Shown here piece by piece: positions 21,429-45,928 of a stretch of DNA of 64,000 nucleotides. The notes beneath the pieces are model-generated. The model saw nothing but the letters and a program-made list of their open reading frames with translations, ran no database searches and had not been told where the DNA came from. The stretch is from a virus. The DNA lies in the IMG/VR virus record IMGVR_UViG_3300024999_000040, positions 1-64,000 of that record; one strand, given 5' to 3'. Numbering within the stretch: the first letter of the stretch is position 1; the number at the start of each line of letters is the position of its first letter. Position numbers and translations under genes: made by a program.

Positions 21429-22076
21429 GTGGTTCTTATTAGTGTTTTAGTTGCAATTGCAGTAAAACCAAAAGATGGGTTAAAACCATACTTATTAATG
21501 GGTTCAGACTCTAAAGAAGTTTTAATCGAAGCAGTACCATTGGTAAGCGGAGAATTAGATTTTAAAATTTCTACAAATGAGAATAAAGAAAAAATTTTCA
21601 GGGTTAATGATATACTTGTTGGTATGACAGGTAAGCATGATGATACATTAATGGTATCTTTTATAGAACATCTGCGAGAAAATGACATGGAATTTGAAAA
21701 ATTATCTTATTTGAGTTTTGATTACATTAAAAAATATGTAGAAAATGAAAATCGATATGATGCATTATGTGCTGTAACAATGGGTTGCTGCAAAAATTCA
21801 AAACCGATTTTAACCCGATTCACAGTAGATAAAACAAAATTAACTGATGCTAATATCAGGATTATAGAACCTCCGGATAACAATTGTATACCTTCTTATT
21901 CTGGCAAGTCAGTTGGTTTGGATGATTTACGAGAAAAGTTCGAGAAAGGTGTAAGAGACAGTATTAACATAAATCTGGTGGCTGTTAAGAAAACCGCAAC
22001 GGAATATTTGAAGGCAGCCGCTGCACGCTATCCAGAAACATGTAACCAAAACATTCGTATCATGTATTTGAAGTAG
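21429..22076 (+). CDS. Ntn-hydrolase/proteasome-subunit-like protein
   Basis: SVLVAIA...LMGSDSK...KIFRVN.ILVGMTG resembles the N-terminal motif of proteasome beta/HslV-like proteins. Confidence 0.5.
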   Translation: MVLISVLVAIAVKPKDGLKPYLLMGSDSKEVLIEAVPLVSGELDFKISTNENKEKIFRVNDILVGMTGKHDDTLMVSFIEHLRENDMEFEKLSYLSFDYIKKYVENENRYDALCAVTMGCCKNSKPILTRFTVDKTKLTDANIRIIEPPDNNCIPSYSGKSVGLDDLREKFEKGVRDSININLVAVKKTATEYLKAAAARYPETCNQNIRIMYLK

Positions 22077-22411: not shown

Positions 22412-22486
22412 CGCGGATTGGAGCAGTGGTAGCTTGTGAGAGTCATAATCTCAAGGTCAGTAGTTCGAATCTACTATCCGCAACCA
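22412..22486 (+). tRNA. tRNA-Met(CAT), initiator-like acceptor stem
   Basis: Cloverleaf CGCGGAT...ATCCGCA-ACCA; anticodon arm TGAGA-GTCATAA-TCTCA; T-loop TTCGAAT. Confidence 0.9.
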
Positions 22487-22707: not shown

Positions 22708-22736
22708 TTGACACAATTTAACTAAGGTGATATAAT
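22708..22736 (+). promoter_or_regulatory. Consensus sigma-A promoter with extended -10
   Basis: TTGACA-17 bp-TATAAT with TG upstream of the -10 box. Confidence 0.8.
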
Positions 22737-22786
22737 AATAGTGTAATCAAAAACAAAAATAATTGAAATTAAAGGAGATAAAAAGT

Positions 22787-23449
22787 ATGCTATCATTAAA
22801 GGAAAGTTTCAGAATCATGAATAATCTAGATTCAACTATCAATTCTCTATCCTATTATATAAAGGATACAAATAACGCAGTAAAAGTAGTTGAGAAACAT
22901 TATAAGTCAAAATCTAACTCTGATACAACAGATGAGGAAATAGATATGACAGTCGTTCGTACATATCCAAATGCTACAATTGTTGATATTGTGTATTTGG
23001 TTAAACAGTTAGTTGAAGAAAAGACAAAGTTATCACTTGCAATTGAGGATGCTAAAAAATATAGTATCGCACTTGATTACAAGGAGAATGATGAAAGACT
23101 TACTCTTGACTCTGCTGTTGAAACTGCAAAGAAAAGTAGAGATTTAGCAAATACACTAAAGAATCTTGTTGATTTAAAAGCTTCAGAAACTAAGAAAATT
23201 GGGAACTCTTATAAGTTCAACATCAACGGTGATCAAACTGTATACAAGTATGATATAGAAGTAGTAAAGACAATAGATTTTGATAGAACTGTTGTCAATG
23301 ACAACTATAAGAGATTGCTTGATAAGGCTGACACTTTATCTACACAGATTGAATCAGTCATGTTGAAAGATGTAGTAAATTATACACCCAAGTATAGTAT
23401 ACATGACTCTTTGACAGACATAGTTGATAAGTACATAGCTAGTAAGTAG
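22787..23449 (+). CDS. Helical/coiled-coil hypothetical protein associated with a downstream structured RNA
   Basis: ATG after AAGGAG RBS; motifs LSLKESFR, EKTKLSLAI, YKFNINGDQTVYKYD, TIDFDR. Confidence 0.75.
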   Translation: MLSLKESFRIMNNLDSTINSLSYYIKDTNNAVKVVEKHYKSKSNSDTTDEEIDMTVVRTYPNATIVDIVYLVKQLVEEKTKLSLAIEDAKKYSIALDYKENDERLTLDSAVETAKKSRDLANTLKNLVDLKASETKKIGNSYKFNINGDQTVYKYDIEVVKTIDFDRTVVNDNYKRLLDKADTLSTQIESVMLKDVVNYTPKYSIHDSLTDIVDKYIASK

Positions 23450-23489
23450 GGTTTAAGAGGTAGTAATACCTCTCCTCTATTTCTATAAA

Positions 23490-23892
23490 ATCCAAAAACA
23501 AGAATTGTGAATCGGTTCTGTTCATCGTTGGAACTATGCTAATGATGAGGTAGTCAATGCCTTAAATTGTCTAGTCATTTATTGATTAGTGAATACTAAA
23601 CTTTATAATAATAGTTATCTAACTGGTAATTTACTTTATAAATAAAAGTAATGCAAATTACATACAACAAGTATGTTTAAGAGGTTCGATAATCGTTTCA
23701 AGAAGCGTAAATTCATTAATTCGATAGGTCATTAGTTCGATAAACCGATAAATCAATAGTACAAGAAGCGATTCGTTAAGCGTATTAAATATTAAAGAAC
23801 AAAAACTTCTTTAAATTAGAAGAATTAAAAATTTCTGATTTTAATATAAATCAAATTGGTGCTTAAAATGATTCCTTTCTTGTTTTTTGGAT
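23490..23892 (+). ncRNA. Candidate ~400-nt structured RNA with internal 8-nt tandem array
   Basis: No ORF of 60 aa or more; ends ATCCAAAAACAAGAA and TTCTTGTTTTTTGGAT are complementary; six consecutive 8-mers at 23710-23757. Confidence 0.6.
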
Positions 23893-23919
23893 AAAATAAA
23901 TAGTTAAGAAAATTTATAT

Positions 23920-23996
23920 AGGGAATTATATCAGCTGGTTAGATAGTTCGTCTGATACGCGAAAAGTCATTGGTTCGAATCCAATATTCCCTACCA
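23920..23996 (+). tRNA. tRNA-Ile(GAT)
   Basis: AGGGAAT...ATTCCCT-ACCA; anticodon arm TTCGT-CTGATAC-GCGAA; T-loop TTCGAAT. Confidence 0.9.
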
Positions 23997-24319: not shown

Positions 24320-26008
24320 GTCAACTAACCCCCACTTAAAATGCGAAAGCATTTTTGAAGTGGAGGCTTGGAGTAGAAATACTCTGTAGCAGTTGATTAG
24401 CCTCAGTAGTGAAAACTACTACGTTATGGGAAAATATATAGGTACTTCAGGATACTCCACAAGTCCTGAACTCTACGGTCTAAGACTAAACATCTCTGAG
24501 GGTAAGGAGAAGTGTTTTGGACATTAAACTTCCTAATAACATTGGCGATGTGGCTCGACCTTTATCTTTATGCTAAAGGCATTATTTATTAAGTTAAATA
24601 AAGGAGGTATTAAAGGAAACATGGTCTATATTTTAAATTTAAAAGGAGAACCTTTGATGCCTTCAACTAGGCACGGAAAAGTTAAACATCTTCTTAAAGA
24701 AGGTAAGGCAAAAGTAATAAAGAAAAACCCTTTTACTATTCAACTTTTGTATGATACTACAAATTACACTCAATTTATTACACTGGGTATTGATTCAGGA
24801 TACAGTAATATTGGGTTCTCTGCTATATCAGAGACAAAAGAACTTATATCAGGGGAAGTAAAACTCATTAGTAACCAACCTGAACGTACCAGGGACAGAC
24901 AACAATACAGGAGACAAAGACGAAATAAACTTCGTCACAGGAAGCCTCGTTTTGATAATAGGCGAAGAACCAAAGGTTGGTTAGCCCCTACTATACAAAA
25001 CAAACTAGATCAACATATTAAATTGGTTGAAAGAGTTAAATCTTTAATCCCAGTTAATAAAACAATTATTGAAGTAGCAAACTTTGATATACAAGCAATA
25101 AAAGATATTGATATTCAAGGTATAGGATATCAACAAGGTGTACAATATGGATTTTGGAACTTGCGTGAGTATATTTTACATCGTGACAGTCATATTTGTC
25201 AGAATCCTAATTGTAAGCACAAAAAAAATGCACCTAAGTTTGATTATATAAAAAGCAATATACCGTTACAGGTACATCATATTGGTTATTGGCACAATGA
25301 CCGAACAGATAGACCAGAGAATCTAATAACACTTTGTATTCACTGTCATACCTCTGCTAATCACAAGAAAGGTAAATTTCTTTATGAATGGCAGCCGAAA
25401 CTAAAATGCTTTAAATCAGAAACCTTTATGTCAATTATACGGTGGAGATTAGTAAACCTAATTCAAAATGAACACACTTATGGTTTTCTGACCAAAAGCA
25501 AAAGAATTACACTTAATTTAGAGAAAACACATTACAATGATGCTTTTTGTATTGCTGGTGGTTCAACTCAAAAGAGAGTAACCCCCTTAATGATAACCAA
25601 AAAACGCAGAAATAACCGAATACTACAAAAGTTTTATGATGCTAAGTATGTAGACCAACGAACAGGTGAGAAAGTATCTGCTTCAGATTTGCATTGTGGC
25701 AGAAGAAAACGGAATAAAAATTTAAATGACGAGAACCTAAAAAAGTATCGTGGTAAAAAAATAAGTAAAGGCAGAATAACTATAAGAACAAAACGTTATA
25801 AATTACAACCTAATGCAGAAGTAAATTATCAAGGTAAGAAATATCTTGTAACAGGTGTTGTGAATTACGGTAACTATGTAAGGTTAAAAGGATTAAAGAA
25901 GGATATTAAATCAAAAGAGGTACAATTACTTTATCTTAATACAGGGGCTTTAATCTGTTAATGTCATTCACTCCCCACTTGAAGAAGTGGGGCTACTCTG
26001 ACACAAAA
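24320..26008 (+). mobile_element. IS200/IS605-superfamily IscB element 1 (omega/HEARO RNA plus iscB, no tnpA)
   Basis: Left end GTCAACTAACCCCCACTT...GAAGTGGAGGC; right-end hairpin CCCCACTTGAAGAAGTGGGG; omega-RNA motifs CTACGTT and AACATTGGCGA. Confidence 0.85.
24570..25961 (+). CDS. iscB: RNA-guided endonuclease IscB (likely start ATG 24621)
   Basis: PLMP domain, RuvC-I LGIDSG, RRxRR bridge helix, HNH (HHI...NLITLCxxCH), RuvC-III HYNDA. Confidence 0.9.
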   Translation: MLKALFIKLNKGGIKGNMVYILNLKGEPLMPSTRHGKVKHLLKEGKAKVIKKNPFTIQLLYDTTNYTQFITLGIDSGYSNIGFSAISETKELISGEVKLISNQPERTRDRQQYRRQRRNKLRHRKPRFDNRRRTKGWLAPTIQNKLDQHIKLVERVKSLIPVNKTIIEVANFDIQAIKDIDIQGIGYQQGVQYGFWNLREYILHRDSHICQNPNCKHKKNAPKFDYIKSNIPLQVHHIGYWHNDRTDRPENLITLCIHCHTSANHKKGKFLYEWQPKLKCFKSETFMSIIRWRLVNLIQNEHTYGFLTKSKRITLNLEKTHYNDAFCIAGGSTQKRVTPLMITKKRRNNRILQKFYDAKYVDQRTGEKVSASDLHCGRRKRNKNLNDENLKKYRGKKISKGRITIRTKRYKLQPNAEVNYQGKKYLVTGVVNYGNYVRLKGLKKDIKSKEVQLLYLNTGALIC

Positions 26009-26035: not shown

Positions 26036-26500
26036 GAATTCGGTCTTTTAACGTGTTTTACTTGATGGCGGGTATGCCAACCGAAATTATCCATTAAAAC
26101 CACAACGACAACATCATAGCACCCCAAAATAAGCTTGGTTGTACGACAGTGGGAGGATAAAACACACAAATAGTTTGTTGATGTCAAATTTGTGTGAAGA
26201 GAAATCAACCATGATACACGTATAGTTGCCTGTCGTATGTGTAAAGTGAATCCTGCTTGGAATAAGCAACAGGAGAAAATCTAAACATCTATAAGGTCGG
26301 AAATGGTTCCCGACACACTTTTGTAATCGAATTCAAAATAATGGAGTGGCTTCGTTCGTTTTGAGTTTGTGAGAAAGTATCTGAGATGCAGGATATGCCG
26401 CCCTGCTGTAGATGTTTGGAAATCTATATAGAGCTTTAGGCTCAATCTTATTTTTATTGTAGAAGGAAACATCCGCATGTCTATACGATTTGCGGATATT
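26036..26500 (+). ncRNA. Candidate large, highly structured ncRNA (strand inferred)
   Basis: GC-elevated stretch without a credible gene and with many long-range complementary segments. Confidence 0.5.
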
Positions 26501-26537: not shown

Positions 26538-27608
26538 GTGGAACGAATGGCAAAAGTAGTAAAAATAAAATATTTTACAGATGAAAAGAAAGCATTAATA
26601 AATCCAGATAATAAGATTCTTTATGGTAAATATTTAAAATCAAATATTCTTAAAAATAAAGAGGTTAAGGATACAACCTATGCTATATATGAAAATTATG
26701 TAACTCAATTCTTAGTTTATTTAGCTGAAGAATGGGATAATGTTAATTTATATCATGAAGATTTTTTTGAAAATGCCATAGAAATTATAGAAGGATTTAT
26801 GTCGTTTTGTCAGGACACTTTGCAAAATAATAAAAAGGTAATTAATACTAAAGTATCAGCAGTATCTTCTTTTTATAATTGGAGTGTTAAAAGAAAAGAG
26901 ATTACATATCATCCTTTTGATGGTAAAATCGAAAGAATGAAAGGTGCTGGAGATGAAAGAATAACTAAAGATTATTTTCTTACTGAAGAACAAATTTTGA
27001 CAGTTGCTAAAGAATTAATTACAAATCCAAAATTTGATATTCAAGATAGGATATTATTTCATTTAGCAATAGATTCAGCTAATCGTATTGGAGCAATTTC
27101 AAAACTTACTTTATCAGCATTGGATATAGATAATATGCTATTCGAAAATATACGTGAAAAACGGGGGAATCGTGTAGAAGTTGTCTTTGAGGAGTTATGT
27201 AAATCCTACATTGAAGAATGGCTTATTATGAGAAAAGATATGGATAATCTTACGATTGATTCTTTATTTATGACTAGATATCATAATGAATATAGGATTA
27301 TGACAAGGAGTACTATATCTGACAGAGCTAGAAAAATAGGTACTTTATTAGGAATTGAAGATTTCCATATGCATTGTTTTCGTAAGACTTCTATAAATAA
27401 TGTAATGCTTTTAAGTGGTGATATTGAAATGGCAAAAGAACACGCTGGGCATAAATCGACTGACACAACTTTGATCTATATCAAAAAGAAATCGAAAACG
27501 GAGATCAGAGAAAAATTAAAAGAATTAAAAGAAAAGAAAAAGGCTGAAGCAGATAAAGTTAAACAACCAGAATTAATAACTCCAATAATTAATGAAGAGC
27601 AGGAATAG
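26538..27608 (+). CDS. Tyrosine recombinase (XerC/D-like)
   Basis: Catalytic set intact: SANRIG (R), EKRG (K), HCFR (HxxR), AGH...TTLIY (H, Y). Confidence 0.85.
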   Translation: MERMAKVVKIKYFTDEKKALINPDNKILYGKYLKSNILKNKEVKDTTYAIYENYVTQFLVYLAEEWDNVNLYHEDFFENAIEIIEGFMSFCQDTLQNNKKVINTKVSAVSSFYNWSVKRKEITYHPFDGKIERMKGAGDERITKDYFLTEEQILTVAKELITNPKFDIQDRILFHLAIDSANRIGAISKLTLSALDIDNMLFENIREKRGNRVEVVFEELCKSYIEEWLIMRKDMDNLTIDSLFMTRYHNEYRIMTRSTISDRARKIGTLLGIEDFHMHCFRKTSINNVMLLSGDIEMAKEHAGHKSTDTTLIYIKKKSKTEIREKLKELKEKKKAEADKVKQPELITPIINEEQE

Positions 27609-44428: not shown

Positions 44429-45928
44429 GTCAACCACCCACGACCCTAAAGGGTCGGGGCTTGCAAAAGTCTGATTGACTAGACTAAGCGAAAAGCTACG
44501 TTGTTTAGGTCATGATACCCAAGAATATTTATCCTAGTTCTTGGCTCTATCGTATAGTATTAAAAGTTCTAAGAGGTAGGAACGGTGTACTATATACAAC
44601 AAGCCTTTACAACATTGTCTAAGGATATTAACTCTAATATACGGAGGTTTTAAAAACAAAATGGTATATGTATTAAATATTCAAGGCAATCCAATTATGC
44701 CTTGTAAAGAAGCAAAAGCAAGAAAGTTACTTAGAGACAATCTTGCAAGAGTAATTAAGAAAGAACCTTTCACTATTCAATTGATTTTTGAATGTGAAAA
44801 TCAAGTGCAAGATATTACTCTTGGAATTGATGCAGGAAGTAAGATAATAGGTATATCTGCTACTACTGATAAACAAGAATTATATTCATCAGAGGTTGAA
44901 TTGAGGAATGATATTGTAGATTTACTGGCTACTCGTAGACAAAATAGACGCACAAGAAGAAACAGACTTAGATATAGAAAAGCTAGGTTTCTCAATCGTG
45001 TAGGTAGTAAAAACAAAGGATGGCTTGCACCTAGTATTGAAAACAAAATACAAACACATTTGAGTATTGTTGAGAAACTTTATAAGATACTGCCTATATC
45101 TAAAATTATAGTTGAAGTAGCATCATTTGATATTCAAAAGATTAAGAATCCTGATATACAGGGTGAAGAATATCAGCAAGGTGAAATGATGGGATGGAAT
45201 GCAAGAGAATATGTATTATTCAGGGATGGACACCAATGTCAAGGTAAAAAAGGTTGTAAGAATAAAATATTACGAACACATCATATAGAATCAAGGAAGA
45301 CAGGGGGAGATACACCGAATAATCTAATAACTTTATGTAAAGAATGTCATGATGATTATCATTTAGGTAAATTAAAACTTAATCTAAAACGTGGCAAATC
45401 ATTTAGAGATGCGGCTTTTATGGGTATTATGAGATGGGCATTTTATAATAAACTTAAAGAAATATATCCCAATGTAAGTTTGACATATGGGTATATAACT
45501 AAGAACACAAGAATTGAAAATAAACTACCAAAAGAACATAGGATTGATGCATTGTGCATTAGTGGTAATCCATTAGTTAAAAGATTGGATAGCTATTATT
45601 ATATTAAGCAAGTAAGAAAACACAATAGACAAATACACAAAGCAAATATCTTAAAAGGTGGAATCAAAAAACTAAATCAAGCACCATATGAGGTAAAAGG
45701 ATTTAGATTATTTGATAAGGTCAAATACAAAGGACAGGAGTGTTTTATATTTGGAAGAAGAAGTAGTGGATATTTTGATTTGAGAAAACTTGATAGAACA
45801 AGTATTCATAAATCTGCAAGTTATAAGGATTTAGAATTAGTAAGTAAAAGAAATAGTTTATTAATTGAGAGGAGAAAGGCGATTCCTCCACTCCCCTAAA
45901 GGGAAGTGGTTTCCTCGCCAAAATTTTA
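44429..45928 (+). mobile_element. IscB element 2 (omega/HEARO RNA plus iscB)
   Basis: Left end GTCAACCACCCACGACCCTAAAGGGTCGGGGC; right end CCACTCCCCTAAAGGGAAGTGG; CTACGTT and AACATTGTC omega-RNA motifs. Confidence 0.85.
44661..45899 (+). CDS. iscB: RNA-guided endonuclease IscB
   Basis: PIMP, LGIDAG, RRQNRRTRRNR, HHI...NLITLCKECH, HRIDA motifs. Confidence 0.9.
   Translation: MVYVLNIQGNPIMPCKEAKARKLLRDNLARVIKKEPFTIQLIFECENQVQDITLGIDAGSKIIGISATTDKQELYSSEVELRNDIVDLLATRRQNRRTRRNRLRYRKARFLNRVGSKNKGWLAPSIENKIQTHLSIVEKLYKILPISKIIVEVASFDIQKIKNPDIQGEEYQQGEMMGWNAREYVLFRDGHQCQGKKGCKNKILRTHHIESRKTGGDTPNNLITLCKECHDDYHLGKLKLNLKRGKSFRDAAFMGIMRWAFYNKLKEIYPNVSLTYGYITKNTRIENKLPKEHRIDALCISGNPLVKRLDSYYYIKQVRKHNRQIHKANILKGGIKKLNQAPYEVKGFRLFDKVKYKGQECFIFGRRSSGYFDLRKLDRTSIHKSASYKDLELVSKRNSLLIERRKAIPPLP

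Follow-up and report, generated by a model that had tools for sequence, protein, structure and literature searches.

A stretch of viral DNA of 64,000 nucleotides (nt), which forms the first part of the 148.7-kb virus record IMGVR_UViG_3300024999_000040 of IMG/VR and is referred to here as the window, contains a new module, made up of a gene and an RNA, that belongs to the accessory regions and tRNA islands of phages. The module extends from 22708 to 23892 on the + strand and consists of a consensus promoter, a gene for an acidic protein of 220 amino acids (aa) and, behind the gene, a structured non-coding RNA of about 403 nt. The RNA family is almost certainly real and obligately linked to the gene. 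Most likely we are dealing with a new family of phage RNAs, closed and pseudoknotted, that lie behind a dedicated protein gene and present a periodic unpaired strip. Four features characterize the proposed family, namely a closing helix, a 5' pseudoknotted hairpin, a strip of UUCRNUAAU units and a position after the gene, and all four were found in the window copy and in the related loci. An original prediction made from the window alone had proposed a protein-RNA pair at this site and could assign it to no named system; searches of Rfam and of protein families likewise returned no match.

The predicted 220-aa open reading frame (ORF) at 22787-23449 (+ strand) is upheld by 42 close homologues that share its start methionine. 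Behind it there is indeed no long ORF: between 23450 and 23919 none of 30 aa or more was found on the gene's strand, and the opposite strand has one of 32 aa. The non-coding RNA occupies 23490-23892 on the + strand, counted from the first to the last paired base, and its ends are complementary at the sites named in the original prediction, with the 5' arm at 23490-23504 pairing with the 3' arm at 23877-23892. Loci for comparison were gathered by way of the protein: 21 from viral contigs, 34 from metagenomes, one from a genome collection and five by exact look-up of distant members. De-duplication left 30 distinct loci with a full-length RNA, which make up alignment A2, and end pairing was scored in each sequence by a duplex search in windows of 45 nt. 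A closing helix was found in all 30 loci, with energies of -22 to -66 kcal/mol and arms 340 to 470 nt apart, and in every one of these relatives the end pairing was better than that of shuffled arms, by 3.6 to 12.7 standard deviations. The arm sequences themselves are lineage-specific: AUCCAAAAACAAGAA in the window, AACCAAAGCAUUCUC in other type-A loci and CUAACCAGAAGCAAAGCAAGAU in type-B loci. In locus L057, from a Bacteroidales metagenome-assembled genome (MAG), the arm is GC-rich and the protein just 31% identical, and the closing helix is kept.

In 29 of the 30 loci the + strand RNA forms the more stable closing helix (mean -37.4 versus -29.7 kcal/mol; Wilcoxon p = 2e-6), and the closing helices contain 114 G-U pairs on the + strand versus 57 on the - strand. 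This strand preference and the doubled number of G-U pairs argue for an RNA and not for an inverted repeat in double-stranded DNA. The folding of the window RNA has the same polarity: z is -4.6 for the + strand, where none of 100 shuffles did as well, versus -1.5 for the - strand. These results bear on the alternative that the element acts as DNA, be it a replication origin, an iteron-type partition or operator site (compare the heptad arrays of omega-type repressors) or a single-strand origin, with the end pairing representing an inverted repeat. A pitch of 8 bp does not fit the DNA helical repeat, the pseudoknot and hairpins described below covary, and both the folding z-score and the end pairing, with its G-U excess on the + strand only, are strand-specific. 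Short direct repeats (7-8 bp) set between inverted repeats do resemble iteron and heptad operators, the sequence of the strip is conserved, and strand asymmetry taken alone is compatible with a single-stranded DNA origin on the + strand. On balance we regard a DNA-level element as very improbable.

Inside the arms an inner closing helix is formed by GAAUC at 23509-23513 and GAUUC at 23870-23874. This helix is GAAUC/GAUUC in type A and AGACUA/UAGUCU in type B, and five of its six pairs change on both sides (RNAalifold, alignment A2). A covarying closing stem, which the original prediction had named as support to be sought among aligned homologues, is thus present, in the inner helix and in arms that differ in sequence yet pair in all loci. 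Global alignment of all 30 RNAs with MAFFT followed by RNAalifold recovers the inner helix only, because the arms are too divergent for sequence alignment. The 5' pseudoknotted domain follows at 23514-23548, where the hairpin 23522-23529/23541-23548 has in its loop GAACU (23531-23535), the pairing partner of GGUUC (23514-23518). Seventeen type-A sequences have this hairpin just inside the 5' arm, with a loop GAAYU that pairs with an upstream GRUUC. In this domain 94.5% of the cells are paired, versus 77% when shuffled, and none of 500 shuffles scored as high. All six hairpin pairs that were scored (23524-23529 with 23541-23546) covary, and the pseudoknot helix is 100% paired, with one pair alternating between GC (8 sequences), AU (6) and GU (3). 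Further on, a local hairpin CUAGUCA/UGAUUAG (23571-23589) is kept in L023 with changes on both sides (CUAACGA/UCGUUGG). The 3' domain (23783-23869) consists of short, variable A/U-rich hairpins and carries as its last element, before the 3' arm, a conserved AAAUGAUUCC motif. Rfam 15 has no match in 23450-23919, even at E<=10. With its closing helix, covarying inner helix and strand-specific fold, the gap behind the gene encodes an end-paired structured RNA, as had been proposed.

Between the 5' and 3' halves lies a conserved, mostly unpaired strip of about 105 nt (23682-23782) with about 12 UUCRNUAAU-like units. The original prediction had expected an array of variable length among homologues; the strip is instead length-stable and is the best conserved part of the RNA, with the largest share of invariant and near-invariant columns in alignment A2. 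In the window a conserved C recurs at 23706, 23714, 23722, 23730, 23738, 23746, 23754 and 23762, and an A is found four bases on from each. The six contiguous 8-mers first noted at 23710-23757 are present, but they are only the regular core of the longer array; the CAAGAAGCG direct repeat said to bracket them does so, with starts at 23699 and 23762. Each RNA has a mean of 11.7 such C...A sites, most commonly spaced at 8 nt (123 of 322 intervals), then at 7 (53) and 12 (34). C is periodic at lags of 7-8 and 15-16 and U at lags of 4, 8, 12 and 16, and the logo of the unit reads UUCRNUAAU. The strip is poor in G (11%), has 18% C versus 11% elsewhere, and is enriched eightfold in UCG and fourfold in UCA. 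There is one copy per genome and per locus, and in the 148.7-kb genome nhmmer gave a single match (E 2e-21).

The two larger groups have consensus folds that leave the strip unpaired, and its pairing probability is 0.49 versus 0.62 in the rest of the RNA, being lower in 29 of the 30 sequences. From this we infer that it is single-stranded in vivo. Some simple readings of the strip were rejected. It is not an array of stop codons, UAA and UAG not being enriched in it relative to the rest of the RNA, and on inspection the conserved A lies at +4 from the C and not at +2, which speaks against mimicry of a T-loop or anticodon loop. For the earlier suggestion of a template or guide segment there is no support: the neighbourhoods tested contain no linked reverse transcriptase (RT), and the IscB nearby comes with a separate HEARO RNA.

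The linkage of gene and RNA was examined from both directions. In a protein-first sample of 36 distinct loci with at least 380 nt of downstream sequence, 33 had an intact RNA, in agreement with the earlier statement that similar proteins are followed by similar non-coding stretches. The 33 include L066, L069 and L070, whose proteins match the profile at E-values of about 1e-35 to 1e-46 and whose RNAs have closing helices of -46 to -56 kcal/mol. Of the other three loci, one is on a contig that stops inside the strip (L068) and two have mobile-element insertions. In L056 (560-1000) this is an IS605-type TnpB element, with the TnpB ORF following a break in the 5' arm of the RNA; in L046 (3455-3572) an insertion that begins GUCAACUACCC, like the 5' end of a HEARO, splits a hairpin of the RNA. 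The RNA gene is thus a target for mobile elements. For an RNA-first search, a pattern taken from the last two units of type-B strips was used to scan viral contigs. It gave 18 matches, one of them by chance in coding DNA, and all 17 genuine ones have the gene upstream, with the motif 264-352 nt past the gene end; six of the 17 are on contigs that the protein search had missed. A pattern for the type-A 5' motif had eight matches in the viral contigs, seven of which were chance matches in coding DNA. Other neighbours vary between loci, and homologues of the genes found 3' of the module in L017 are 27 kb away in the window genome, so that the pair moves as a unit. A 94-aa DNA-binding protein is encoded upstream in many loci and was considered as a second obligate partner, but it is absent near the window module.

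The module has a sigma-A/sigma-70 promoter at 22708-22736 (+ strand), TTGACA-17-TATAAT, which matches the consensus at 12 of 12 positions and has a TG extension, as the original prediction stated. A 12/12 promoter is also located 50-74 nt 5' to the gene in L011, L023, L025 and L045, which makes five lineages with the window. Transcription from this promoter probably continues past the gene and yields the RNA as the 3' portion of one transcript, since no credible promoter was found in the interval between gene and RNA and the hairpin situated there (23456-23473, + strand, just after the stop codon) is a weak terminator, being terminator-like in shape with a weak T tract. The loop of this hairpin is GUAA in the window copy; most other loci have an equivalent hairpin with a conserved YUAACCA loop. 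In 7 of 7 type-A2 loci (L002-L005, L007, L027 and L030) the loop is exactly complementary to the 3' tail of the RNA, a count that is limited to this subset, the automatic test having chosen the wrong AACCA in several type-B loci. Loop and tail covary (UCAACCA/UGGUUGA, UUAACCA/UGGUUAA and CUAACCA/UGGUUAG); this complementarity is absent from the window copy. The pairing competes with the outermost pairs of the closing helix and may represent a long-range pseudoknot or an alternative fold. At the other end, tRNA-Ile(GAU) (23920-23996, + strand) begins 28 nt past the RNA with no terminator in between, and processing of this tRNA is a possible source of the 3' end of the RNA.

This arrangement raises the alternative that the structure acts only in cis, as the 3' untranslated region of the gene's mRNA, serving its stability, processing or feedback and having no function in trans. 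Known 3' stabilisers need far less than a structure of 340-470 nt that has a conserved strip of 105 nt, a pseudoknot and more than 20 bp of closing helix, and conservation reaches down to 31% protein identity. The position of the RNA right behind the stop codon, its lack of a promoter of its own, and the post-stop hairpin conserved in many loci with a loop complementary to the 3' tail are all as such a region would have them; we nevertheless consider a purely cis-acting role quite improbable.

The protein belongs to a large, unannotated phage family, which clustering at 50% identity divides into 793 groups (570 with E<=1e-10) and which occurs in phages of anaerobic digesters and of other microbiomes; one member is from a Tissierellia MAG. 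Sequence profiles of Pfam, PHROG, NCBIfam, PADLOC and the PDB gave only noise for the protein, and 50,697 deposited phage records had no relative by tblastn of three family members or blastn of the locus. In the AlphaFold2 (AF2) model, with a predicted local distance difference test score (pLDDT) of 91.6, the predicted fold is made of two helix/beta-hairpin/helix units plus terminal helices. Foldseek found no match to it in the PDB or BFVD at E<=0.001, the best rows being TolC-like with a template modelling score (TM) of 0.24. In a wide structural search only 3kdq_A, a Corynebacterium protein of unknown function, stood above the helical background (Z 10.2, root-mean-square deviation 5.1, 150 residues aligned). 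The neighbours in the ESM Atlas are unnamed phage clusters with TM of 0.7-0.8.

When three copies of the protein were modelled together, the score was 0.43 versus 0.00 for the best control. In a calibration set this value was reached by 20 of 30 proteins solved as same-chain pairs and by 1 of 23 solved as single chains, though the present job was unlike the calibration in using three copies and its own alignment. Contacts agreed between the three-copy runs to at least 88%, the pLDDT of the partner was at least 81, and the family-invariant residues H38, D108 and Y155 fall in the modelled interface. The model thus supports self-association of the protein as a homo-oligomer, with which it agrees without demonstrating it.

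The best explanation of the module as a whole, which we hold with a confidence slightly short of even, is a self-contained unit of promoter, protein gene and large RNA in which the strip is a multivalent docking surface. In the closed architecture of the RNA, a helix of more than 20 bp joins the ends, a pseudoknotted hairpin sits inside the 5' arm, and variable hairpins occupy both halves. The central strip of about 105 nt is predicted to stay largely unpaired and displays some 12 UUCRNUAAU-like units with a pitch near 8 nt; it would offer a docking surface to a repeated or oligomeric partner. That some partner of this kind, a protein or a host factor, binds the strip is probable. The most likely candidate would be the co-encoded protein, given as a homo-oligomer by the model, and the pair would then be a ribonucleoprotein; binding of this protein to the strip is plausible, and we suggest it only tentatively. 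The module would be an accessory, moron-like unit of the phage tRNA-island or early region. Of similar probability is the fullest form of the proposal, a new phage ribonucleoprotein in which a homo-oligomeric, TolC-like helix/beta-hairpin protein sits on a ruler-like strip of about 12 units at 8-nt pitch in a closed RNA scaffold and acts in trans during infection, for example on the host tRNA or translation machinery or on host defences.

Several points weigh against this proposal. In the close family the isoelectric point (pI) is 5.1-6.8 and the net charge -9 to 0 (the window protein has a pI of about 5.6), and distant members have net charges of -14 to -3; average pI values are 5.1-5.6. An acidic protein is atypical for coating about 100 nt of RNA and speaks against simple electrostatic coating, and neither profile nor structure searches revealed a recognisable RNA-binding domain or family in the protein. 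The linkage of gene and RNA proves shared function or shared expression and not physical binding; copies of the RNA that lack the gene were searched for by two narrow patterns only. Both co-transcription and the ends of the RNA are deduced from sequence features. For the window copy, the single-sequence minimum free energy fold pairs much of the strip with 23566-23595, and the pairing probability of the strip equals that of the rest of the RNA (0.61 versus 0.62); this pairing is disfavoured by L023, which shows the 23566-23595 stretch as a local covarying hairpin. The most distant loci keep the central conserved region, with a pitch that is blurred or 7 nt.

The acidity of the protein also bears on a possible role of the RNA without it. 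The large ornate RNAs GOLLD and ROOL of phages, often located near tRNA islands, form homo-oligomeric cages and have no identified protein partner (PMC12286853). The RNA described here is like them in being a large structured phage RNA of unknown function, often found by tRNA genes, with an end-closing helix and pseudoknots (PMC12286853). It might likewise act alone or by self-assembly, with the strip making RNA-RNA or tertiary contacts and the gene linked through a shared promoter and pathway. Roughly half of the loci have tRNA genes at a distance of up to about 1 kb, a frequent but not obligatory flanking that would suit this reading. However, GOLLD and ROOL have no obligately linked gene, whereas the RNA here (340-470 nt, and so smaller) lies obligately behind one particular protein gene, which was present in every locus examined. 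It also differs from them in its long, unpaired, periodic and conserved strip, which resembles a site for a ligand or protein more than a folded core, and it has no covariance-model match: the GOLLD and ROOL Rfam models gave none at the gathering score in the window and 15 related loci, and none at E<=1 in four distant loci. We consider it unlikely that the RNA acts without the protein.

A second alternative is that the RNA is a decoy or sponge with about 12 sites for a host factor, such as an abortive-infection ribonuclease or toxin, a tRNA-targeting nuclease or an oligomeric RNA-binding protein, and that the acidic protein acts on the same target or pathway. Mimicry of an antitoxin by a phage RNA (pseudo-ToxI) is known, and the multivalent repeated motif in an unpaired region, the moron-like placing in an accessory or tRNA region and the strong host-type promoter would all suit such a function, as might the protein, acidic phage proteins presumably often being inhibitors. 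Yet no host target can be named and the unit is not a known recognition motif, nor do the frequencies of UAA and UAG in the strip, or PADLOC and the other family matches, offer any hint of one. We rate a decoy as low in probability as action of the RNA alone.

In type III toxin-antitoxin systems such as ToxIN, which are also phage-borne, a single promoter likewise serves a repetitive RNA and one protein gene. Their RNA is upstream of the gene, with repeats of about 36 nt that the toxin cleaves, and this toxin is an endoribonuclease with another fold; here the units are of 7-8 nt and lie downstream of the gene, and the protein matches no toxin family and nothing in PADLOC. TRAP (on the trp leader), HutP and T4 gp32 (on its own mRNA, beside a pseudoknot) read regularly spaced short motifs on unpaired RNA. 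The likeness to these is in the proposed mode only, that of an oligomeric or cooperative protein on motifs of fixed pitch in single-stranded RNA. Their pitches are 5-7 nt, their motifs are different and their folds unrelated, and they act at regulatory leaders and not on closed 400-nt RNAs behind a gene.

OLE RNA is a large, ornate RNA of Bacillota with highly conserved unpaired nucleotides and is linked to the genes of its partner proteins (OapA/B/C; PMC9723947, PMC12054373). It resembles the RNA here in its size, its conserved unpaired nucleotides and its genetic linkage to a protein gene. It differs in being cellular, from the genomes of extremophiles and anaerobes, and not from phages; the RNAs and proteins are unrelated, and between the two it is OLE for which binding is demonstrated. 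Structured RNAs beside accessory genes, among them the UG27 non-coding RNA arrays, have been described in phages of Bacillota and Bacteroidota (bioRxiv 10.64898/2026.09.22.753630). Retrons, DRT2 and UG27 share with the module a structured non-coding RNA that adjoins accessory genes, but a UG27 array has a variable number of hairpin units, each about 150 nt long, whereas here there is a single closed RNA. A link to UG27, DRT2 or retrons was rejected, as the neighbourhoods tested have no RT: ten neighbouring ORFs of about 400-490 aa matched PhoH+PIN, a metallophosphatase, a helicase, a D5-like primase or nothing. Also rejected was the HEARO or IscB omega RNA (RF02033), since the HEARO matches lie outside the RNA and one of them belongs to the IscB at 24570-25961; a scan of 15 related loci found a HEARO in L011 only. 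For tmRNA, RNase P RNA, 6S RNA and Y RNA, ARAGORN found two tRNAs only and Rfam gave no match at E<=10 in the region. A published list of unnamed candidate structured RNAs from IMG/VR, 8,495 in all (PMC10690425), may contain fragments of the RNA described here.

The lack of a known function or protein partner for GOLLD and ROOL leaves few experimental handles on such RNAs. The present RNA is uncatalogued and of that general kind, and it always occurs with one specific protein gene. Its periodic strip is an obvious candidate interaction surface, so that the question of partnership becomes directly testable, and the answer could reveal the purpose of the RNAs of phage tRNA islands. At the least, the module brings to light a new RNA family and offers the hypothetical phage proteins of one large family a first hint of function. 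If the pair is a ribonucleoprotein, its RNA would be the first of the large ornate phage RNAs to have a protein partner of its own.

The genome that carries the module belongs to a tailed phage, is A/T-rich and has an integrase, a tape-measure gene and two IscB/HEARO elements. As originally described, the module is placed between two tRNA genes, tRNA-Met(CAU) at 22412-22486 (+ strand) on its upstream flank and the tRNA-Ile mentioned above. Neighbours of the module in the window are a gene for an HslV-like peptidase and an IscB. The former is a 215-aa ORF (21429-22076), 5' to tRNA-Met, with a weak likeness to the HslV family (phrog_1040, E 0.005) and no Pfam match. The first IscB element has a HEARO at 24320-24559 (117.8 bits) followed by the IscB ORF at 24570-25961, in which RRXRR and HNH were confirmed. 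The second, at 44429-45899, has a HEARO at 44429-44632 (140.5 bits) and then an ORF. Thus two IscB elements are present in one phage, and no tnpA was seen near either. A skipping-rope RNA (RF02924, 63.6 bits) was found at 26286-26414, just 5' to the integrase gene (26538-27608), and the same motif is located upstream of the module in L008 and L016.

Other RNA-like sequences were seen around the module in related loci. Upstream of it, L066 (119-358) has two tandem matches to YrlA, a Y RNA-like RNA, at 38 bits, which is below the cut-off of 69, and L057 (360-882) has three matches to HDV-like ribozymes at up to 38.1 bits, below the cut-off of 44. In L002 an abiF RNA motif (RF03085, 41.6 bits, above its cut-off) is found at 2181-2217, about 250 nt past the RNA. 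Many loci have, 3' to the RNA, a conserved stretch of about 120 nt that begins UGGAUACAUUGAAGAAAUACGAAAGUUAUGA and contains paired segments (L004:5120-5250, L006:5165-5290, L010:5148-5270, L012:5172-5300, and in L030, L034 and L037). It has no Rfam match at the gathering score and is perhaps another uncatalogued small RNA.

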